Notes: a model not told the origin generated them from the letters alone. DNA of 64,000 nt from an uncultured virus (IMG/VR IMGVR_UViG_3300028833_000009) (IMGVR_UViG_3300028833_000009), one strand, 5' to 3'. Shown: positions 3,017 to 56,649, counted from the first letter of the stretch. Numbers and translations: made by a program.

Positions 3017-3528
3017 TACAATCCTGCCTTTCCGCCATTAACCAGATACCTGTAAGGATCAAGTGTATACTCAATAGATACTGTTGAGTTCACTGCCCCG
3101 GGTTTCCAGTCTCTGAACATAAATCTACCTATGTAGTAATAGTTTCGTTCATCTTCAAGATACATTTTCATCTTTGACCCATCAAGAAAAGAAGCAATCG
3201 CAGCTCTTCTTGAAGGCCAGTCACCGTAATTCGTGTTTGCATACTGTTTAACACCATCTTTAGTCGTACGCTCATAAGGCGAATAGAATTCCGGACCATT
3301 GACAACATAAAACTCAAATGTGCCCGTCCGATTGGAATATACAGGTCTGCCAATCAGATAATCTGTAAGATCTAGCTGACCGTCTGCACCGGGAATGTCC
3401 ACGTATTTATACATAGCAGTCGGCTGGGCAACAATCGGTCTGGCAACAGGAATGAGATGCCAGTTGTCCCACGTGTTTACATGAATGTTACTGTTATCCA
3501 GCTTTTCAAATATTAACGAATGATACAT
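3016..3528 (-). CDS. Distal tail protein (Dit)
   Basis: VDIPGADGQLDLTDYL...YSNRTGTFEF and YYYIGRF...DPYRY motifs; directly after the tape measure gene. Confidence 0.8.
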   Translation of the reverse strand: MYHSLIFEKLDNSNIHVNTWDNWHLIPVARPIVAQPTAMYKYVDIPGADGQLDLTDYLIGRPVYSNRTGTFEFYVVNGPEFYSPYERTTKDGVKQYANTNYGDWPSRRAAIASFLDGSKMKMYLEDERNYYYIGRFMFRDWKPGAVNSTVSIEYTLDPYRYLVNGGKAGL

Positions 3529-3548
3529 ACTGGCATCTCCTTCCTAAA

Positions 3549-6500
3549 TTAGTTTTTCATGTTTATGCGATATGCATAATAACCCTGTTCGCCAAGGTAT
3601 TTGTCCATTGCCGGACCAATACCGAGTACGAGGTCTTCGCCGTCAACATGGAGATTAAGTGCACGTACTGCATCTCCAACATTGCCAACAGAAGAGTCAA
3701 CACTAAGTAACCGCTGATACAGAAGATCAAGTTTGGCACTATAGTCAATCGGTTTGATGGACTCTATAGATTCAGTTGCAAGAGTGAATGAATAATTTGT
3801 ACCGGCATTCAATGCATCTTTAAGTTCCTGTGTTTTATCCAGCACAGCTGTTCCATTCAGTATTGCATGCATTTGCTGCACTTGAGACTTGAATGTGGAG
3901 TCGTCAAGGTTGAGAACTGGAGTGATGGTTGGAGACAGGAAACTGGAAGCTTCAGATGAAAATTCTGAATAGTTTAAAGATTCAAAGAAACCATGCCAAT
4001 CAAATTTTGAAAGATTATCAAATGTAGAAGATCCAAAAGTAGCATCTGCAAAAATATTGCTTTGCGCCATAATGTCTCCGGCAACACTGATAATATTTAA
4101 AAACTGATGCGCAGAATCTAATTGCCGCTGACCAAACTTTTCAGTAAAATTAAAGAAATTAGTAAATGTTGATTCTTTAGTTATGATTGATTCCATAATA
4201 TCAGAAATAGTATTAATATATGCGTCAATTGGAATGGTATATACGGATCCAATTCCACCAAATGGATTAGCGCCATTATTAGTAAAACTATTATATGTTT
4301 CTGATAAAGCATGACTCAGGGAATTAATAATGTTTGCAAATGACTGTATGACTTTTACCATTCCTTCAATGTATGGAATTGCAGCTTCGAATTCTTCCTT
4401 AGTTATATCATTAGCTTTTAAATCTGCAACGACATCTTTTATAAAAATAAACAATGTATGCAAAGAACCTTCAAAAGTAGAAGCTCCTGTAGCAACATTA
4501 CTTCCTTTAAGCGTTACTTTCTCTTTATAACCAAACAAACTTTCAAAAATCGCATTAATCGAGTCATTATATCCGCTCATCAGGGAACCATTGTTGCTAT
4601 TCGTTAATGTGGCCGTCATTCTGACAACAGCATTAACTATGCTTGTGAATAAATCAATATATTTCTGAAGCGTAGGCAAATATTTCTCAACATCTTTGAA
4701 AGCATTGTATGATTCGCTTACATAGAACATGCTATCGCTTATGTTTGCAACTGGTTTGTCTTTTTCTCCTGTTATTTCTAGTGCAAATCCTGACATAAGC
4801 GCACTAAACCGACTAAACCATACTCCAAATGATCCAATAGTTCCATCATCAGGAGGCTGCGGAAGATCAATGGCTTTCTTCATAACATTCAAAAATGAAG
4901 AAGCAACATCAAATAAGTTTAATAACCATCCAAAATCATCATCCTTGGGTTTTACTAAAACTTCAGGATTTGTCAAATTATTCAAAGCTATTGCCAATTG
5001 CGTAGCAAATTCTGAAAATTTGTTAAAGAATTCAGTATTAAACTTGCTTGGATCATATTTGTCCAAAGATATAGCCATTTTTGTTATCATTGTGGCGGTC
5101 ATTAATGCCATTCGAACATTTGCTTCATTATATGTGTGAGAAAGCTTATTTTCTGATTCTTCATTTACATTATTAATGGCATCTAAGAATTGACCAAGAC
5201 CAGTTCCAAGTGATTGAATATTGCTAGCGAAAGCACTTAAGCCCTTGTCGCCATCAAATATCTTAGTAAGGAATGAATCGCTTGGAAGATTCCTAAGACT
5301 AATGCCTATTTCAGTGATTGCATGCAATGCCTGAATAGCAAGTTTTATATTTTTTTCATCCAGTGTCATTGTATTAGAAGCAAAAGAACTCAATGCATTT
5401 CCAAGTTCACCAATATTTAGCGAAAACTTGGAAACATTTTCGCTATCTGTACCCGAACTAAATGTGATTCGCTCAATAATACCTATAAATCTATTGATAT
5501 CTTCATCTTCAGTTCCAGTTAATTCCATACATGCTTTTGCAATAGATGACAAAGATCCAGCAAGAATAATCAAACCTTCGGCAGATTTCAATCCTTCACC
5601 ACTTACCTGCGGAATCGATTCTTTATTAAACATTTCAATAGCATTTTTAAATTCATCATCTTCAAACATCTTTTTCAGCAGTGTTGTAACATTTGTAAAA
5701 TCGATTTCTTTTGGTTCTTCTCCTGGTTTGAATATAGTAGTATCATTGAACAACCTTGCTATTGCCCCAAGACTCATAAAAGCATCTTTAAAATTGGCAA
5801 ATGCATTATCTTCATCAACTGCAAATTCTCCAAATGCTTTCATTTTATCTTTCAGACTAAGCAATGAATCAAGTCCTGTAGCAGCCTTATCAAATCCGTC
5901 AACGCCTTCTTTAAACAAACCTATTGCACTGCCTAATTTACTAAACATTGTTGATAATATGCCAATTGCTTTTGGAACATCATCAACATGCTGCATCTTA
6001 GGAAGTTCTTGATCAGTGCCTTCTTTTATCTCAATGTCAATTGTATAAAGAATAGATAGTATTTCTATAATTAATGTTTTTGTATCCTTAACTGTCTGTA
6101 TAGCACTGCCAAGTTGATCTTTTACACTTGAAAGATCTCTAGTTATATTTACAATGTTACCAGCTAAAGTTTCTCCACCAAGGCCAAGATTGCTAAGAGC
6201 ATCTGCAATATTTCCACTCATCAATTCGACAACATCCGCCAACTGCCCTGCGCCAAGAGACAAACCTGTAGTTTTTCCAAGTGTTCCGCCCAAGTTCTCA
6301 ATCCATGAAATAGCACCGCTGCCAAGCCATCCGGTAAGGTTCGTTAATCCCTTTTTAAAAAGCCCATCATATTCATTTTTTGCAATGCCATTAATTAATT
6401 CTCCTGTTTCTTTTTCACCATCAAAAAGATCAGTAACAGCATCTACAACGTCATCTGAAGATTTACCTTGCTCTTTTTTGGCTTTTTTAAGCTCAGCAGC

Positions 6501-19795: not shown

Positions 19796-20506
19796 TTACC
19801 TCCGTTTTCTTCTTTTCGGTTTTTGATAAACATACTTGCCAGCATATTGTGTTCCGGCAAAGCTTTCATCCATAGCATTTTTAAATGCTTCTGCTTTTGC
19901 ACGATATTTCTTTGCATGCGTAGCACGATATGCATTTTGTGCGGATTTAGCAGCTAAGCCTGCTGTTGCTAATCCTGCGCCAGCTCTAAATAAATCATTA
20001 TTTGTTATTGTTAATTTACGATATTGGTTAACCGCTGTTGGATGTGTTGGATTAGGTGCATTTGAATCTGCACGTCTTGTTAATATGTTGAAATTATGCT
20101 CCTTATTGCCAAAGTCAATCAATCTGTTTGGGATCTTTTCTTTCATATCGCGAGATAAGAAATATAAATCAAGATTCCTTACAGTTCCATTAGGTCTTAA
20201 TGAAGCTTTTCTTACAAGGGGACTTAATTTCTTTATTGCACCTGCAACAGTACCTGTTCCACCAACAGCAAGCGTTCCAGTACCTGCAGCTGCTGCACCA
20301 TAGGCTGCAGCTTTTGCAGCATACTTGCCTGGTCGCATACCAATATCCTGCAATTTATAAAGCTTTTTGGCCGCTTTTTTGAAATGTCTGTCAAGCGCTT
20401 TCTGGTTACCAGTATATAGCGCTTTTCTCACTCCCCATTTCATTCCCTTAATGCCATAGTGTTTAAGGGATTCATCGGAGCGAGTTACTCCATAATATTC
20501 GCTCAT
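19796..20506 (-). CDS. Basic HYGIKGMKWG-motif protein, paralog of 18983-19789
   Basis: SLKHYGIKGMKWGVRK; shares NAYRA...FAGTxYA C-terminus with its neighbour. Confidence 0.7.
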   Translation of the reverse strand: MSEYYGVTRSDESLKHYGIKGMKWGVRKALYTGNQKALDRHFKKAAKKLYKLQDIGMRPGKYAAKAAAYGAAAAGTGTLAVGGTGTVAGAIKKLSPLVRKASLRPNGTVRNLDLYFLSRDMKEKIPNRLIDFGNKEHNFNILTRRADSNAPNPTHPTAVNQYRKLTITNNDLFRAGAGLATAGLAAKSAQNAYRATHAKKYRAKAEAFKNAMDESFAGTQYAGKYVYQKPKRRKRR

Positions 20507-20527: not shown

Positions 20528-22276
20528 TTAGTCAAAAGCATCACGATTCATCTTATAAGCAACCAGCGCATCAATCATTGCAGCAACACTGTCGATCTTT
20601 TGATCATTCCGTTTCTTATAAAGCTTACGGTTACCATTGTTGTCAGTAATTGCAATGGAATTACCCATTGTGAATGTCATCATTTGCTGATCAAATATAA
20701 GCGCACGTTCTTCAGCAAGTTTCTTAAGTTCTCCAAGAGGTACACTTTCTGTCTTAGCTCCCTGCCGAACCATTACTATGCCGAAGTCACCATTCTCGGA
20801 TGCCCATCGTGCAACAAAATCTTTTGCATTATACGGGTCATAACCAATACAACGCACATCATATTTTGATTGCATGATAAAATTGTCCAAATCATCATAG
20901 ACTTCCATCATGTCAAGAATTGCTCCATCCAATACGGCGAGACTATTCTCATCAATGAATTCATCATACTTATTTCGCATAGACTGAGGAAGATTTGCAA
21001 ATGTCGCAGAGGAAATATAGCAACGCGTCTTGATCCCGAATGTTCCATCTCCAAGAGGAAATAAGAACGTAAAGGCGCAGAAGTCATCGCCTCGTGACAA
21101 GTCAATACCCATCGAACAACCCATGTTCCAAAAGTCTCTATGATGATGTGGCAATGTCTCATTGAATGTAAAGAAATAAGTGTAACCTTCAAGCGGGATT
21201 CCAAATCTTTTAGCCAGAATATCATTACGAGCTGATGGTGCCTTTTCAGCACGCTCCACATCAAGCTGGTATGCTTCATAGCTTACTGTTTTACCAAGAT
21301 TTGGATTCGCTTTTACCCACATGCTTGGATCTGCAACTTCCTTGACATCATCAAGTTTGTAGTACCAGATACTGACATGCGGGTTATCGTATTCTCCCTT
21401 CAGGATGCTCATCAATTCCATTTTGATGTCATCACCACTAGCATTTCGAACTGTTCCTTCAGAACTTGTTGCTAGGATAAAATAATCATCAAGTTTGGAA
21501 GCACCCTGCTCAATAGCTCCGATGACGTCTTCGCGGATATCCCCCGACAGCCATTCGTCAACGGTGGCTACCTTTGGACGAAGACCTTGAAGTTTGTCAA
21601 TCGTCATAGGGCGAGGCTCAATAATTGAACCATTTATAAAATTTTGTATTCCGAGTTTCGTTGAAGCCAGTTTCACACGATTGGCTTTTGAGCCTGTCGT
21701 ATTCTGAAGACTTCCTTCTGTCAGGAATTTAAACAGCGGACCTCTTGCACGAACAATTGCTGTACGAATCGGTCCAAGTGTTTCATCGGATTGTCGGATT
21801 GTTGGCGCAGTAACAATCTGGTCAGTTGTTTCTGTTGAAACATTCAGAAAATAGCTCTGAATGCAACTGGCATAAATACTCTTAGCAGCACCACGACCAA
21901 CAATCAGAAACTGTTTTGTTGTAAGACGCTTCTTAACTGTCCTGGTCTCGTAGTGAACTGAATGACCATCGGGACTTAATACAGGAACGCTCTTTTCAAC
22001 AAAATAATACCATCCAAAAACCTGTTCAGCCCAGAGCTTGAAAGAATCCAGAAGCGTTAGATCACTTCCGTCTGTCAGGCACATTTCTCCTTCACAGAAA
22101 TTTATAAATGCCTCGACAGGCTGCGGATCATAATATACTCCAGGATTATCAATCAGATCTTGAATCCGATACATTTCCATGGAGATTTCTTTACAGACTG
22201 GAATCTCTCCTCGAAGAACTAGATCACGAAACTGTGCGAAATACTTCGGCGTGGCTGTATTGCTGAGGTAGATCAA
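20528..22276 (-). CDS. terL: Terminase large subunit
   Basis: Walker A-like IVGRGAAKS, Walker B VATVDE, nuclease GIDLS...DDF, KIDSVAA. Confidence 0.92.
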   Translation of the reverse strand: MIYLSNTATPKYFAQFRDLVLRGEIPVCKEISMEMYRIQDLIDNPGVYYDPQPVEAFINFCEGEMCLTDGSDLTLLDSFKLWAEQVFGWYYFVEKSVPVLSPDGHSVHYETRTVKKRLTTKQFLIVGRGAAKSIYASCIQSYFLNVSTETTDQIVTAPTIRQSDETLGPIRTAIVRARGPLFKFLTEGSLQNTTGSKANRVKLASTKLGIQNFINGSIIEPRPMTIDKLQGLRPKVATVDEWLSGDIREDVIGAIEQGASKLDDYFILATSSEGTVRNASGDDIKMELMSILKGEYDNPHVSIWYYKLDDVKEVADPSMWVKANPNLGKTVSYEAYQLDVERAEKAPSARNDILAKRFGIPLEGYTYFFTFNETLPHHHRDFWNMGCSMGIDLSRGDDFCAFTFLFPLGDGTFGIKTRCYISSATFANLPQSMRNKYDEFIDENSLAVLDGAILDMMEVYDDLDNFIMQSKYDVRCIGYDPYNAKDFVARWASENGDFGIVMVRQGAKTESVPLGELKKLAEERALIFDQQMMTFTMGNSIAITDNNGNRKLYKKRNDQKIDSVAAMIDALVAYKMNRDAFD

Positions 22277-23916
22277 TTCTTCTTCTTTTTACTGCCGCCA
22301 CCGTTGTTGTTACTATTTCTTGGTTTACCCCATTTTTCAACAATTGGATCATAAGATGCTACTTTAACTTGTTTAGGCGGCTGCATATTGAATTTTGGTT
22401 CTGGACGAACTTTAGGATACTCTAATTTAGGCAAAGGATGTTTGATAATATCAGGTTTTTCAGGAATTGCCAGCCCCATCGAAACATTACGCGCAGCTTT
22501 ATCATTCCATTCTCTTTCAGCAGCATCTCTATCTGCACGTAATTTATTATATTCAGGAAGGGCTTGCTGATATTCTTGTTGAGCGTCAAGAACTTCTTTC
22601 TCCCATGCTCTATGATCTTTCTTAAACACTTCTTTGGCAGCATCAAATTTCTTCTGCTCAATTTCATACTGCTCCTGCTTTTCCTTAGCTTGTTCACGTT
22701 GATCATAACGTTTTGCCAAATCATTCGTAACATCAACGAAAAACCTATTCCTAACTTCCTGACGATATTCAGCATCATTATTATATTTATGTTTTTCACG
22801 CTTACTTAAATTATAATGATTTTGTATATCTTCGTCATTCACATTTAAGTCGTTTGTTAATTCAAAGAACTTTTTATCATATTCTTCTTGAACAGCATTC
22901 TGTGCATCGGCTAAACGCTTTTGATCTTTAATTGTTTTATAATTTGTTAATTCAAATAACTTCTTCTCATATTCTGTCTTAACAGCATTCTGTGCATCAG
23001 TTAAACGCTTTTGATCTTCGATTGCTTTAACATTTGCTTGATAATCATGAATCGTCATTGGCGCTCTTCTGGTAAACCAACTTTCGCCATTCTTGGCCAT
23101 AACTTCGTAAGCTTGTTGCTTGATATCTTCATCAATCTCACTCTTAGTTTTCTTATTTCGTTCACGATTCTTGATCTTATCCAGAATGCCTTCCTGCTTA
23201 GCAGCCTGATTCAACTTACGCCGATCCAGAATATGCTTGATACCAACCTGAGCACCTGCACGAGCAACTTCCTCCATAACTGCAGCAGTACCACGTGTAA
23301 TACCCTGAAGCTGACCAGCACGACGTGCTTCCTTCTTCTGCTGACGCCAAGTCTTTTCCTGAGAACCAAGCTTTCTGGTCTGATTCTCAAGATTCAACCT
23401 GTCTTGAACGCGCTCAATTTGTTCACTACTCAGCTTGCCATATTTCAATTTGCCCTGACGTGCCTGCTTCATGATCTTGTCCATGCGCTTTTCAATCTTG
23501 GCGGCACGCTTAGCATTCTTATAAGAAACATAAGCACTGTTTGCAGCAGTCTTACTTTCAAGTCCAGCCTGCTTCTGCATCCACTTCTGCTGCTTCTGTT
23601 GCTGCTTAAGATCTCGATTCAGCTGCTTGGCATATGCTCGCTCGTTATCATATCGATTCATACCTTCGATATAATTAATACGATCACGCGCTTTTCTGGC
23701 AGCTTTAAGTTGCTTTTGTCTCTGATGAGTTGCTCTGGACTTCGACAGGTTTTCAAGACCACTTCGCATGTTATTCCGAAGTTTAGCAGCAGCCCGTTTA
23801 AATGCCTGGCTTTTAGGTCTCAGGTCGTCGCCAAAGAGGTGCTGACCCCATTTCATACCTTTGACGCCGTAGTGATACAACTCACGAGGGTCATTGGTAA
23901 CGGCATAGTATTTCAA
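22273..23916 (-). CDS. Large basic coiled-coil HYGVKGMKWG-motif protein
   Basis: ELYHYGVKGMKWG. Start reassigned to TTG at 23916 after GGAGGTG, giving MKYYAV like its paralogs. Internal 30-aa tandem repeat. Confidence 0.7.
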   Translation of the reverse strand: MKYYAVTNDPRELYHYGVKGMKWGQHLFGDDLRPKSQAFKRAAAKLRNNMRSGLENLSKSRATHQRQKQLKAARKARDRINYIEGMNRYDNERAYAKQLNRDLKQQQKQQKWMQKQAGLESKTAANSAYVSYKNAKRAAKIEKRMDKIMKQARQGKLKYGKLSSEQIERVQDRLNLENQTRKLGSQEKTWRQQKKEARRAGQLQGITRGTAAVMEEVARAGAQVGIKHILDRRKLNQAAKQEGILDKIKNRERNKKTKSEIDEDIKQQAYEVMAKNGESWFTRRAPMTIHDYQANVKAIEDQKRLTDAQNAVKTEYEKKLFELTNYKTIKDQKRLADAQNAVQEEYDKKFFELTNDLNVNDEDIQNHYNLSKREKHKYNNDAEYRQEVRNRFFVDVTNDLAKRYDQREQAKEKQEQYEIEQKKFDAAKEVFKKDHRAWEKEVLDAQQEYQQALPEYNKLRADRDAAEREWNDKAARNVSMGLAIPEKPDIIKHPLPKLEYPKVRPEPKFNMQPPKQVKVASYDPIVEKWGKPRNSNNNGGGSKKKKN

Positions 23917-24298
23917 GGGTCTCACCTCCTTCACTTTCATTTTGATTCCAATTACGTTCATTTTGTGCAACCAATCGCCATTCAAGTTCTGCGATTCTGG
24001 AATTGATTGCGTCTGAAACTACTGATGATGCTGGCGGATCAAATACAAGTCGCGCCTTATAATAGACATAAGTCTTTACAGCTTCGATCAGTGTTTTGTC
24101 TTTGGAGAATTCTGACCATGTCGTACTGGCTTCATTGATGGAGAAACCTTCATCAGGACCAATACCAAGCTGATGTAATGTCATAAATATTTCATTGATA
24201 AACATCCCGATCTGTGTATCGAATGCTGGATCGGACTCATAAACATTTAGCAGATTTTTAATACTCATCAGAATGCTCTGATTTTCTACAAGAGGCAT
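23891..24298 (-). CDS. Head-tail connector (adaptor) protein
   Basis: SILMSIKNLL...FD...LHQLGIG...VKTYVYYKARLVFDPP...ELEWRL. Confidence 0.7.
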   Translation of the reverse strand: MPLVENQSILMSIKNLLNVYESDPAFDTQIGMFINEIFMTLHQLGIGPDEGFSINEASTTWSEFSKDKTLIEAVKTYVYYKARLVFDPPASSVVSDAINSRIAELEWRLVAQNERNWNQNESEGGETLEILCRYQ

Positions 24299-53465: not shown

Positions 53466-53843
53466 TCATGAACGAGGCTTATTCATGAATTTCGTCGCTG
53501 ACGAATTGATTATATGTCCCTGTTCTTCGCTTCGGATCACATCCGTGACGTTTCGTCTATTCATTACATTTCCTATCATTGTTCCAGCCAGATTACCAGC
53601 AACCTGGACTAATGTTGGCAGTATCCACTGATACTGTGCTTTCTCAGTTGCTTCTGTCTGTGTTTCATTGCGTTCAGATTCCGTAATAATCGACAGCTGT
53701 TCGTTCAGAAATGCATACTGCGATCGGTCCTCCTGTTTGGACGGATCCAAAGCTGCCATACGGCGAATCAGGTCTTTTTTCAAATCGATCGTCGTGACTT
53801 CGTCTTCATTTTCTTCCTCATCATAATTTACATACTCGGCCAT
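53466..53843 (-). CDS. Cassette ORF, conserved phage protein
   Basis: AGNLAG...EEQGHIINSSATKF. Confidence 0.65.
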   Translation of the reverse strand: MAEYVNYDEEENEDEVTTIDLKKDLIRRMAALDPSKQEDRSQYAFLNEQLSIITESERNETQTEATEKAQYQWILPTLVQVAGNLAGTMIGNVMNRRNVTDVIRSEEQGHIINSSATKFMNKPRS

Positions 53844-53959
53844 CTTTTCAAAGTCTCCTTTCTTAATATCGGAAAGACACTGTTTATCTCTCCATTATTA
53901 AACCTTGCTTCGTTTGCGAAAATAAAAAGCCAGGCATTGCTGCCCAGCTATTGGTTTTG

Positions 53960-54181
53960 TTACTTTTGTTCCACGATCATCGTAAACATTCCCATTTTAT
54001 TATACTTCTGTTGCTTTCTAATGCTTTGTAATAGCGTCATTCTTTTTGGAATTGTGACCGTCAATGGATAAACTCCATTTAATTGTCGGTTTACATCTCC
54101 ATAACCTTCTTTTGATGCTATCAGCATCGCATCCTTTTCATTGTCCAACAAAATTACAATTACATACTTTTTTTGAAACAT
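53960..54181 (-). CDS. Cassette ORF, hypothetical
   Basis: AAGGAGG RBS. Confidence 0.6.
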   Translation of the reverse strand: MFQKKYVIVILLDNEKDAMLIASKEGYGDVNRQLNGVYPLTVTIPKRMTLLQSIRKQQKYNKMGMFTMIVEQK

Positions 54182-54247
54182 TTACAATCCTCCTTAAATA
54201 TAGAATTTAGAATACAATCCCACTTAAGGAGTTGGTTTGGTTGCGAA

Positions 54248-54370
54248 TCATGGAATCAGATTCAGGCCAAGGTCTGATCCAAGCACTCCAAGCAGAATAA
54301 ATATCACGATAACAATGATTAACAGATCAAAACCTTCTCTTTCTTTATCTTGCCTGCGCATTTGAATCAT
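54248..54370 (-). CDS. 40-aa single-TM peptide directly after the pentamer array
   Basis: Manual translation MIQMRRQDKEREGFDLLIIVIVIFILLGVLGSDLGLNLIP. Confidence 0.45.
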   Translation of the reverse strand: MIQMRRQDKEREGFDLLIIVIVIFILLGVLGSDLGLNLIP

Positions 54371-54390
54371 ACCTCTTTTCCTGAATATCT

Positions 54391-55112
54391 TTACCCTTAC
54401 ATACCCTTGCTTTACCTCACCTTAACCGTACCATTCACTACGGCACGTTACCCAACCCGACGTCGCGTAACCTTTACCGGACCGGACTGCACTATACGAT
54501 GCATAACCTTTACATCACGCAACTGTATACTACCGTGCCCAACCATCACTTAACCGGCCTGAACAAGACATTACCATTACTTGACAACACACTACTTCAC
54601 CTTACCATTACTTGACAACACGCCACCTCACCTTACCGTTACTCCACTAAACTGAACCTTGCATAACCTTCACATAACTTCACGCAACAATTCCGCACCT
54701 TACCGCTACTCTACGCTACTCAACGAAACCCCACACAACCTTCACTTCACAAAACCTCACTTTACCTTTACTTAACGTTTCATAACCGGACTTAATAATG
54801 CCATACGTTACAACGCCATACCTTGACTTACCTTCACGTAACACTACCTCACCGTTACTCCGCGTTGCGATACCAGACTATACCATCACACAACAGAAAC
54901 ACACCACGACCCTACGTTACATAACCTTGACCTCACATAACCCTACTGTACCATGACGAAACACAACGTATCTGCACTATACCTTCACTTCACATTACGT
55001 TGCTCTGCCTTGACTCAACAGATCTGTACCCGGCTTTACCTTTACAGCACTGGACATGACTGGACTTAACCAAACCATCACATAACCGGACTCATCCGCA
55101 CTTTACCTTCAC
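54391..55112 (-). repeat. Non-coding array of NNN-GT pentamers punctuated by N(A)NGGT hexamers; putative guide RNA array
   Basis: Minus strand reads GAAGGT AAAGT GCGGA TGAGT CCGGT TATGT GATGGT TTGGT TAAGT CCAGT CATGT CCAGT GCTGT AAAGGT... for ~720 nt; no minus-strand ORF of 60 aa or more. Confidence 0.9.
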
Positions 55113-55118
55113 AAAATA

Positions 55119-55736
55119 TCAGCTCTTAGTGCGCTCCAGAATTTCGTAGGTAAAACGTCCTTTTCCGGAATTTCTCCACTGACCGGTACCGTTATAACGA
55201 CCATGATTCAGGCACTCAAGTACCATTTTTTCATGCTCGTCCAGCAGACAAATAATCGTGAAAGTCATCTCTGCGCCTGCAGGAATAGCTTCACTGGTGG
55301 CAAGAGCAATCCGCTCACCCTGGGCAGTAGATGCTCGAAGCGGGCGCTGGCAGAGAGTAATATCGCCATCAAACTCGATCGGAATGGCCCTGGGTTCCAC
55401 AAAAATAAGTCCGTCGATCTCCTTTTTGTAGGACTTAATCTTACTGCAGGCAGTTCCGGGAATTTTCCGAAGCATACCGACCTTGTCCTTCAAAAATCCC
55501 TTCCACTGATAGTCCCACATAATTGGCTGATAGTTTACTCTCGGAAATACAGTAATGGACTTTTCGAATTTGTCTTCAAGATCGATGGCAGATTCCTCTA
55601 CAGCTGCAGTTTCTTCCTTTGCTTTCGCCTCATCTCCGGATTTTGTGGAAATATAGGTCGCATGAATGTTCGGATCAGCATTGGAAGTGCCAAGAAGTTC
55701 TTCAGTAGTGGTAACCTTAACTTTCAATGTAATCAT
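55119..55736 (-). CDS. Stand-alone RAMP/Cas7-like RNA-binding protein
   Basis: LKVKVTTTEELLG first strand, PIMWDYQWKGFLKD, EAIPAGAEMTFTI, C-terminal Gly-rich loop GTGQWRNSGKGRF. Confidence 0.75.
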   Translation of the reverse strand: MITLKVKVTTTEELLGTSNADPNIHATYISTKSGDEAKAKEETAAVEESAIDLEDKFEKSITVFPRVNYQPIMWDYQWKGFLKDKVGMLRKIPGTACSKIKSYKKEIDGLIFVEPRAIPIEFDGDITLCQRPLRASTAQGERIALATSEAIPAGAEMTFTIICLLDEHEKMVLECLNHGRYNGTGQWRNSGKGRFTYEILERTKS

Positions 55737-55765
55737 CGTGTTAATCTCCTTTTTAAAAATATTGT

Positions 55766-55972
55766 TTAGTCTTTTGTAGCAATATAGTGTTTTAGTGTGT
55801 CACGTGAATCATAAGCTTCATCAGACCACCAGTTCGTTTTGTCTTTAATAATTTGCTGTAGTTTATATCCTTGCTGCTCAATTTCCCGAAGTTTCTTCGA
55901 GATAACAAAGTCCGGAATACAAAAATCAATCAGATTTTTCCCAGTGTCCTTAAACTCGACAAGCAGCGTCAC
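55766..55972 (-). CDS. Hypothetical 68-aa protein in the RAMP operon
   Basis: GTG start overlapping the upstream stop; GGAGGT RBS. Confidence 0.6.
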   Translation of the reverse strand: MTLLVEFKDTGKNLIDFCIPDFVISKKLREIEQQGYKLQQIIKDKTNWWSDEAYDSRDTLKHYIATKD

Positions 55973-56496
55973 TTCTTTTTACCTCCGTCAACCTTTTTAG
56001 CATCCTCAACGTAATACCCATACAAACCCGCAATATCAAAATCAATTCGTGCCTGAATATAGTTTAGTTCAAACCGCTCTGCCTGCTTCAACACACAAAT
56101 ATACTTTGCTGCTCTGATCAGTTCATCATCAGTTGCACCGAATTTCTTGATAATAATCATGAGCGTATAAATACTGCTCATTTCAGTAGAAATCTCAGAA
56201 GGCGTTGGTTTACGCATTAATCCGCCAATTGCATAATCAACCGTTGGATTATAGTTTGCGAGATCTTCTGATTTTTCCATCAGTTCACCGATAATCCGTT
56301 CACCTTCTGAACGCACTCCTCGGTTACGAATATCTTCTGTAGAATCCATGGTAAAAGATTCTTCGATGTTTTTCGAGGAACGGTTCTTATATTTCCGAAT
56401 TCCCCATTCCACAGCTTTTGTAAGTAAAGATCCTGCACCTGCTGAAATTGCCACAAGTCCCACCGTTCCTAATGTAGATCGATTGTTGTTGTCCAA
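55969..56496 (-). CDS. Protein with N-terminal hydrophobic segment and C-terminal copy of an RNAP subdomain
   Basis: Start set at TTG 56496 after AAGGAGG; 21/65 ungapped identities (hand count) to RNAP residues encoded at 28106-28300. Confidence 0.7.
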   Translation of the reverse strand: MDNNNRSTLGTVGLVAISAGAGSLLTKAVEWGIRKYKNRSSKNIEESFTMDSTEDIRNRGVRSEGERIIGELMEKSEDLANYNPTVDYAIGGLMRKPTPSEISTEMSSIYTLMIIIKKFGATDDELIRAAKYICVLKQAERFELNYIQARIDFDIAGLYGYYVEDAKKVDGGKKK

Positions 56497-56531
56497 TGTG
56501 GTCTTTCCTCCTTTAAAAATGATAAAAGAAA

Positions 56532-56649
56532 GGAGAAGCGGACTAATTCGATAACAGTATTTTTGTTTTGGAATTCCGCGCTCATTACGAGTCGCGCTTT
56601 CCACTCTTTCCATAATCGAAGTAACTGTTATCTGCAGTTCCGCTTCTCC
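56532..56649 (-). ncRNA. Structured leader RNA, copy B
   Basis: GGAGAAGCGGA/TCCGCTTCTCC 11-bp closing stem plus U-tract; inner GATAACAGT/ACTGTTATC; starts right after the promoter motif. Confidence 0.7.

Follow-up and report, generated by a model that had tools for sequence, protein, structure and literature searches.

A five-base guide-RNA array in an uncultured gut phage whose six-base units most likely delimit separate guides

The locus considered here lies in 64,000 nucleotides of DNA from an uncultured virus (IMG/VR IMGVR_UViG_3300028833_000009), the whole of which we call the window. The window is phage DNA, carrying a terminase large-subunit (TerL) gene, DUF3310 and PHROG families, and the sequencing runs that contain it are from sheep gut. 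On its minus strand, a gene for a small Cas7-like protein ends 7 nt upstream of a long array of short tandem units that has the same orientation.

55119..55736, minus strand: vipr gene, encoding a 205-aa Cas7-like RAMP protein with a C-terminal glycine-rich loop (GTGQWRNSGKGRF); identified from the open reading frame, a structural model, and profiles
54388..55112, minus strand: vrRNA array of 140 tandem units; identified by parsing

The preliminary description of this DNA had postulated a RAMP protein at the locus, and the predicted structure bears this out. An AlphaFold (AF2) model of the 205-aa protein, built from 71 aligned homologs, has a mean pLDDT of 92.5 and a Cas7 fold; the best solved structures found with Foldseek are those of Cas7 from type VII and Csm3 from type III systems (E 3e-8, TM 0.56-0.58, probability 1.0). 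Profile comparison with PDB sequences gave Cas7 at E 6e-6 and the G-loop of Csm4 at E 0.0026. The PDB structures matched (as of April 2026) are Cas7 chains, with no Vipr among them, and searches of Pfam and PHROGs assigned the protein to no family. Judged by the model, the protein is a small RAMP with a glycine-rich loop, and it is encoded outside any CRISPR-Cas locus: the only cas-like gene near the array is vipr itself. Its family is a large one: one search gave 7532 homologs at E<=1e-3, and a second gave 1500 clusters at 50% identity. Relatives on viral contigs number 255. The family is carried by phages and prophages whose hosts are Clostridia of the gut and rumen. A BLAST comparison of the locus with GenBank phages matched four gut phages without annotation, and those only in the protein gene.

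We compared nine neighboring open reading frames with 160 homologous loci in search of an accessory (vap) gene (tblastn, E<=1e-4, a search that distant or non-orthologous vap genes would escape); eight recur nowhere and one in a single locus. Two reading frames near the array deserve a word in their own right. A 42-aa frame directly after the array (54245-54373, minus strand), outside that set of nine, is preceded by a ribosome-binding-like site and is predicted to form a single hydrophobic helix (MIQMRRQDKEREGF..., then a run of I, L, and V). A 214-aa reading frame two genes upstream of vipr (55969-56613, minus strand) has a weak match (E 8.8e-6, about 90 residues) to a PHROG family labeled RNA-dependent RNA polymerase; it recurs beside vipr homologs in none of the 160 loci.

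The array occupies the position that the preliminary description had given it and runs without interruption for 725 nt, from 55112 to 54388 on the minus strand, in units that mostly open with GT. The distance from one GT to the next is 5 nt in 66 cases and 6 nt in 23, and no comparable period-5 GT/AC signal is found elsewhere in the 64-kb window. A dynamic-programming parse resolves the 140 units into 116 pentamers (G-T-N-N-N), 23 hexamers, and one terminal 7-mer. The pentamers hold a G at position 1 (114 of 116) and usually a T at position 2 (94 of 116), positions 3-5 are mixed, and the G may be preceded by any base (A 36, C 19, G 31, T 30). The hexamers are a distinct class with a consensus of their own, G-T-N-A-H-G: G and T are invariant at the first two positions (23 of 23 each), the third is free, and A (21 of 23), a base other than G (22 of 23), and G (22 of 23) complete the unit. 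Read together with the GT of the following unit, this consensus is the N(A)NGGT hexamer of the preliminary description; a full GGY is found mainly at the hexamers. The units that bear on the argument below are as follows.

55107..55112, minus strand: hexamer unit 1, first of the array (parse)
55076..55081, minus strand: hexamer unit (parse)
55040..55045, minus strand: hexamer unit (parse)
55009..55014, minus strand: hexamer unit (parse)
54983..54988, minus strand: hexamer unit (parse)
54952..54957, minus strand: hexamer unit (parse)
54926..54931, minus strand: hexamer unit (parse)
54884..54889, minus strand: hexamer unit (parse); the stretch upstream, about 54910-54890, is degenerate and the parse uncertain there
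54853..54858, minus strand: hexamer unit (parse)
54822..54827, minus strand: hexamer unit (parse), followed by the longest run, 10 pentamer-length units of which one is degenerate
54766..54771, minus strand: hexamer unit (parse)
54740..54745, minus strand: hexamer unit (parse)
54704..54709, minus strand: hexamer unit (parse)
54668..54673, minus strand: hexamer unit (parse)
54637..54642, minus strand: hexamer unit opening copy 1 of a duplicated 31-nt block (parse and tandem-repeat result)
54606..54611, minus strand: hexamer unit opening copy 2 of the duplicated 31-nt block (parse and tandem-repeat result)
54575..54580, minus strand: hexamer unit (parse)
54544..54549, minus strand: hexamer unit (parse)
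54508..54513, minus strand: hexamer unit (parse)
54427..54477, minus strand: terminase-matching guide block, a hexamer (54477-54472) and 9 pentamers, the longest clean block (parse and target scans)
54421..54426, minus strand: hexamer unit closing the terminase-matching block (parse)
54395..54400, minus strand: last hexamer unit before the array end (parse)

The hexamers are regularly placed. The preliminary description had the register slipping every 3-6 pentamers; the punctuation is there, and its spacing is tighter than that, with 19 of 22 hexamer-to-hexamer gaps falling at 5-7 units (mean 6.27, sd 1.75). Counted in nucleotides, the spacings are 31 (ten times), 36 (five), 26 (four), and 11, 51, and 56 (once each), and the autocorrelation of GT reaches 83 at lag 31, against 74 at lag 5, with further peaks at 62, 93, and 124. 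One hexamer, GTTTCT near 54900, is probably an artefact of parsing a locally degenerate stretch. Apart from its units the array is plain. It holds no minus-strand reading frame of at least 50 aa, there are no inverted repeats in 54300-55200 and hence no hairpins in the array, an Rfam scan of 53500-56000 gave no match, and we found neither a conserved structured 3′ tail nor a non-repeat segment between blocks. Between 53000 and 56500 there are no CRISPR-type repeats, the 5- and 6-nt units and the 31-nt super-period being the only repetition; scans for promoters and terminators gave nothing above shuffled sequence. One sample, sequenced in two metatranscriptome runs, yields contigs over parts of the array at a depth of 2-3, although these may be DNA carry-over and the contigs convey neither ends, strand, nor level.

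The arrangement is not peculiar to this phage. A period-5 array adjoins the homologous gene on the same strand at 78 of 80 viral loci and 77 of 80 loci from assembled bacterial genomes (for the most part gut and rumen MAGs of Clostridia), and in all 155 of these array-bearing loci, out of 160, the array is co-oriented with the Cas7-like gene. The second fixed base of the homologous arrays is mostly C or A, and not T; since most use G-C or G-A, their sequences are unrelated to that of the window array apart from the grammar. That grammar includes the hexamers. In nearly all homologous arrays base identity at lag 31 is about that at lag 5, with lag 30 at background, and the best super-lag in the 66 genome-derived arrays of at least 250 nt is 31 in 31 arrays, 26 in 18, 36 in 13, 41 in three, and 21 in one. 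Among 108 distinct parsed arrays, the window's own included, the 1752 hexamer gaps are most often 5 units (438), 6 (414), 7 (287), 4 (135), or 8 (116), and the mean gap per array ranges from 4.5 to 6.9 units. The hexamer consensus of the homologs, taken from 108 distinct 31-nt blocks, has A at position 4 with a frequency of 0.78 and G at position 6 with a frequency of 0.94. These are also the positions that change least: among related arrays (whose pairs are not independent) the mismatch rate in hexamers is 0.05 at position 4 and 0.01 at position 6, as against 0.10-0.12 at variable positions, and in pentamers it is 0.03 at the fixed G as against 0.10-0.12 at positions 3-5. The preliminary description had proposed comparing unit lengths and hexamer consensus in homologs, where spacing like that of random indels would have spoken against it; the punctuation recurs in the 108 arrays and no such spacing is seen, so we regard hexamer punctuation as a conserved rule.

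The rule has its local variants. In the array of an Atopobiaceae MAG (L095, 1528-2099), where the 26-nt super-period accounts for 13 of 20 gaps, and in a second array (L110, 2175-2467), five units per block are preferred and the hexamers lack the A at position 4. Block size and hexamer consensus may thus vary with protein clade. Some loci carry arrays on both sides of vipr (L134, at 550-867 and 3066-3592; L009, at 3455-3785 and 4285-4640), and the window has one, downstream only. Arrays flank vipr on both sides at the SUSP1 locus as well, as that locus is described in the preprint text (10.64898/2026.04.26.720920).

These features identify the locus as a VIPR system, in which a Cas7-like Vipr is accompanied by a tandem five-base guide-RNA (vrRNA) array, here with the variant repeat N-G-T/NN. 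VIPR (Viral Interference Programmable Repeat) is described in the preprint text as a phage-encoded ancestral RAMP, Vipr, working with vrRNAs built from pentamers of the form GGY/NN; the NN bases pair with the DNA target, in which one base of every three, usually at the codon wobble position, is skipped (10.64898/2026.04.26.720920). Seven types are distinguished there, with variant motifs NNNGG, YNNNG, and NNNNG, arrays interspersed with hammerheads, and "staggered arrays with overlapping vrRNAs" (10.64898/2026.04.26.720920). The type II systems of Escherichia phage SUSP1 and a Pseudomonas fulva prophage have been characterized (10.64898/2026.04.26.720920; 10.64898/2026.04.26.720927), and in that of SUSP1 one Vipr protomer occupies each repeat in a right-handed filament (10.64898/2026.04.26.720927). 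An Evo-PIN survey adds non-canonical VIPR-like period-5 clusters, WGT/NN, TGH/NN, and GAC/NN (10.64898/2026.10.21.760802), and the calling of vrRNAs is treated in 10.64898/2026.10.15.759431. The window shares with these systems the tandem five-base array, co-oriented with vipr and alternating fixed with hypervariable positions. It does not have the canonical GGY/NN consensus, but a variant motif does not exclude membership, since the preprints, in the parts cited here, allow related consensus sequences (YNNNG, NNNNG, WGT/NN). The structured 3′ tail that each type II vrRNA bears is absent, as are the direct repeats of about 24-48 nt, unique spacers, and nearby cas genes by which a CRISPR array is recognized. 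For one guide, complementarity predicted from sequence shows the one-nucleotide skip in frame with codons and points, as would befit a phage-encoded system directed at competing elements, to a foreign TerL motif. The main text, legends, and passages of the VIPR preprints on which this account draws mention no six-base unit, 31-nt period, or consensus for hexamers, although fig. S18 may show the same thing. The VIPR kind itself is already known; what the present analysis adds is a bounded terminase match and the block-wise indels.

To look for targets we adopted as a hypothesis the rule that the two bases following each G-Y pair with the target, of which the next base is skipped, and built search patterns from the two longest in-register runs of the window array. 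The pattern given by the first eight units of the block at 54477-54427 (16 fixed bases) has 56 exact matches in viral_contigs. Forty of them lie in frame on a conserved motif of terminases, YDRWNASM; these represent 31 distinct sequence contexts, with differences at wobble positions. The other 16 are scattered; the dinucleotides that follow G-Y in this block, with one base skipped, equal codon positions 1-2 of YDRWNASM. The fifth base of the guide does not track the third base of the target in the TerL matches, as expected for a skipped base. Patterns of equal size from three other arrays, used as controls, gave 22, 9, and 22 scattered matches with no gene in common, mostly in short open frames. 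An earlier mismatch search of five MAGs with a homologous locus had yielded one match with two mismatches, where about 0.6 would be expected by chance, in frame on EIAYDRWNATMM of a prophage terminase large subunit; that lead being unremarkable by count, the weight of the terminase match rests on the later, unbiased scan of viral contigs.

The match is confined to its block. The exact nine-unit pattern has no match in viral_contigs, the ninth pentamer agreeing with one of two bases in most of the TerL matches. At the other edge, the dinucleotide of the opening hexamer matches neither base of the conserved codon before the motif in any of the 40, and in the 31 distinct contexts six units upstream and six downstream are at chance at shifts of -3 to +3. 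With the flanks at chance and the hexamer unmatched, the complementarity fills one hexamer-bounded block, stopping at its edges or one unit inside. A match so bounded is what separate guides would predict, this being one of about 22, and is not what a guide read through the hexamers would give. On this evidence at least one guide is predicted to target competing phages through their gene for the terminase large subunit. The phage has a terminase of its own.

20528..22276, minus strand: the phage's own TerL, 582 aa, with nuclease and ATPase domains (domain match)

At the motif this protein reads GYDPYNAKD, and it matches the guide at 11 of 18 positions, a difference that looks like self-avoidance or an escaped target site. 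The reading frames that flank this terminase gene (22273-23985 and 19796-20506, both minus strand) open with a similar motif, ...HYG[IV]KGMKWG..., and the shared start suggests an N-terminal module duplicated in two structural or injected proteins.

Other searches for targets gave nothing above background. The other blocks, mostly of 4-6 pentamers and 8-12 fixed bases, are too short for such a test; the TerL block aside, they did no better than shuffled guides against three terminase-bearing phage genomes, and against 80 TerL loci they gave nothing above chance. The 11-unit pattern, made of the 10-unit run and the dinucleotide of the next hexamer, had no match. Eight-unit windows of 51 arrays, set against the window and 80 loci, gave five matches where shuffled controls gave 8-16; in-register runs of at least seven units from the 108 arrays did no better than controls against 3.5 Mb; the long runs of three other arrays returned background only, with no coherent target; and a motif search of the 108 arrays for further terminase-type guides found only the window's block. 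In metagenome_contigs the nine-unit pattern has three matches that we regard as chance. One of these, in a GC-rich non-phage reading frame, agrees at 30 of 33 contiguous bases, and we attribute it to chance because its third positions fit the GC bias. We also considered reading the three variable bases as a contiguous codon, but the depletion of stop triplets in that reading is not diagnostic, since it is present in other frames too.

Related arrays differ from one another by whole blocks. In an inspected alignment of seven of them, a 26-nt deletion removes exactly one hexamer and four pentamers, a 31-nt deletion begins at a hexamer, a tandem 21-nt duplication consists of a hexamer and three pentamers, and larger deletions have their ends inside two hexamers. 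The window array itself contains a tandem 31-nt duplication (54643-54571; period 31, 2.4 copies, 90% matches). Such indels resemble the gain and loss of repeat-spacer units, although they could be explained simply by recombination at the shared hexamer sequence; their sizes between related arrays are varied and are not simple multiples of 31. We rely on the inspected alignment because an automated count of BLAST breakpoints, which clustered at hexamers, was partly an artefact of the hexamer consensus and of alignment and has been discounted.

Because whole blocks, each opening with a hexamer, come and go between related arrays, we think that the hexamers most likely delimit separate guides, which may or may not be cut apart there. 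If they behave as boundaries, the array is multiplexed, as the preliminary description had supposed, and regular spacing, a conserved consensus, low substitution at positions 4 and 6, block-wise change, and one bounded target all speak for its view, the target being that of a single guide. The preliminary description had also given the guides the length of a CRISPR spacer. This holds for the RNA, at 26-36 nt, and fails for the pairing: since the published rule reads two of every three target bases, most blocks specify 8-12 bases. Blocks of 4-6 pentamers thus fall far below the 9-16 repeats of characterized vrRNAs, which counts against our reading.

As to how a boundary might work, we lean toward an arrangement in which Vipr protomers sit one per unit, a run in one register stops at the extra base, and each block forms a filament and a guide of its own, with or without cleavage. 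By analogy with SUSP1, a protomer would bind each five-base unit, holding the fixed G and pyrimidine, and would present the next two bases to double-stranded DNA, with every third target base skipped. Every 5-7 units an extra base (G-Y-N-A-H-G, then G-Y) would shift the binding register by one and so mark a guide boundary, and protomers assembled in one register could not extend their run into the next block. Since a register-bound run could not continue, a long transcript would fall into some 22 short guides, each 4-10 pentamers long, which could remain as separate beads on one RNA or be cut at the exposed junction. The full GGY at each hexamer may be a preferred start or stop site. Between its guides this array family has no structured tails, hairpins, or ribozymes, and the register slip would serve instead.

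A broader and bolder version strikes us as possible, though we would stop a little short of endorsing it: that one large branch of VIPR, found in gut and rumen, sets its guides apart by shifting the register a single nucleotide, in place of using a repeat, hairpin, ribozyme, or tail. A full GGY with one extra base before it would nucleate or stop the filament, and an unstructured transcript would sort itself into about 20 ribonucleoproteins of 4-10 protomers, each a DNA-silencing guide, gained and lost whole at the stops.

The strongest competitor, which nevertheless seems to us unlikely, makes the hexamer a geometric spacer: a continuous Vipr filament would extend over many blocks, and an extra nucleotide about once per helical turn would relieve strain. 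The numbers lend it some appeal, for a turn of the SUSP1 filament is described as taking six subunits when the complex is binary and five when it is ternary, with DNA bound (10.64898/2026.04.26.720927), close to the mean spacing of 6.27 units in the window and to the modes of 5-6 units across the 108 arrays, and a jitter of plus or minus one unit could be tolerated in relieving strain. A helically symmetric filament, however, needs no irregularity at each turn, and the SUSP1 vrRNA, as presented in that preprint, has none over 12 repeats (10.64898/2026.04.26.720927). Nor would a spacer account for block sizes of 4-10 within one array served by one protein, or call for A at position 4 and a base other than G at position 5. 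The terminase block, moreover, contains nine pentamers without an internal hexamer, and its match is absent from the neighboring blocks at all shifts from -3 to +3.

We consider it very improbable that the one-base slips are neutral by-products of array growth by replication slippage or unequal recombination, tolerated and without a role. Blocks are indeed duplicated and deleted as arrays evolve, and the indels are of varied size, as this explanation would have it, but slips arising at random would be geometrically spaced. Random placement of an equal number of hexamers gives a gap sd of 5.1, and none of 20,000 simulations matched the regularity observed. Nearly all slips, moreover, are of +1 and few of -1, there being no 4-mers among the 140 units of the window array by the same parse and 0-3 per array among the homologs; and the consensus is conserved, with lowered substitution, in arrays whose sequences otherwise have almost nothing in common and that differ even in the second base. 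That the feature acts as double-stranded DNA, with GT phased at half the helical repeat in a protein-coating or curvature element (centromere, packaging site, or origin), we find barely credible, for although 31 bp is three turns of 10.33 bp and close to B-DNA, the signal is strand-specific and co-oriented with the gene of a Cas7-like RNA-binding protein wherever an array was found (155 of 160 loci), the period varies among 26, 31, and 36 within one array, the variable bases of one block appear to spell a foreign terminase motif under an RNA-guide rule, and VIPR arrays of like build are reported in the preprint text to be transcribed and to co-purify with Vipr (10.64898/2026.04.26.720920).

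Delimitation of guides by hexamers would have some practical consequence. VIPR is a discovery only months old, made known in preprints of 2026, and type II, with its tailed vrRNAs of about 100 nt, is the only type that has been worked out. If six-base units set guide boundaries, arrays of the present kind could be parsed into guides from sequence alone, target prediction would be opened for thousands of uncultured phages, and the minimal element needed to multiplex such guides would have been identified. If guides are delimited by register shift, no known RNA-guided system would have a more minimal array grammar, and an array of this sort could be a stepping stone toward repeat-spacer arrays. 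The terminase match offers one concrete, checkable candidate for a target of phage against phage.

Among known systems, the "staggered vrRNA arrays" probably share the architecture of the window array, to judge from the text and the legend of fig. S18 (10.64898/2026.04.26.720920). In the legend, positions in staggered arrays overlap by 1 nt, whereas neighbors in the window are separated by one extra base; the text passages on these arrays give no period of 5-7 units, hexamer consensus, or test of boundaries by a target, and do not count them among the arrays confirmed by small-RNA sequencing (10.64898/2026.04.26.720920). The Evo-PIN clusters likewise have five-base repeats, a degenerate first fixed base, and a Vipr-like fold encoded alongside, and WGT/NN fits the units of the window; unlike the window, they are described as having a pure 5-nt periodicity and about 10 repeats, and six-base units or a super-period go unmentioned in the passages concerned (10.64898/2026.10.21.760802).

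The likeness to the type II VIPR systems of SUSP1 and P. fulva is broad. Both are phage-encoded and combine a small single-RRM RAMP bearing a G-loop with a co-oriented five-base array in which fixed and variable positions alternate, and in both the target, predicted in our case, is read two on and one off in frame with the codons of an essential gene of a competitor, with no self-match. They differ in that the window fixes only the G and following pyrimidine (N-G-T/NN, not GGY), has no conserved 3′ tail or pseudoknot, and shows no conserved accessory gene. Whereas each type II vrRNA is an RNA of its own, about 100 nt long and with 9-16 repeats, the window array is a single run of 725 nt and 140 units, in which guides are apparently set apart by a six-base unit.

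Two systems farther afield are instructive. In Bacillus, the TRAP protein binds the trp leader RNA through 11 G/UAG triplets that lie 2-3 nt apart and wrap around the protein ring. As predicted for Vipr, a protein oligomer there reads a short fixed motif every 5-6 nt on unstructured RNA, but TRAP is a closed ring of a different fold, acting at one regulatory site and with no variable guide bases. Class 1 CRISPR arrays, with their Cas7 backbones, resemble the proposed system in having a RAMP backbone whose thumb periodically interrupts guide-target pairing, multiplexed guides against mobile elements, and the gain and loss of whole units. The array considered here lacks their direct repeats of 24-48 nt, contiguous spacers, cas operon, and known acquisition machinery, and, unlike them, it has its periodicity written into the RNA sequence itself.
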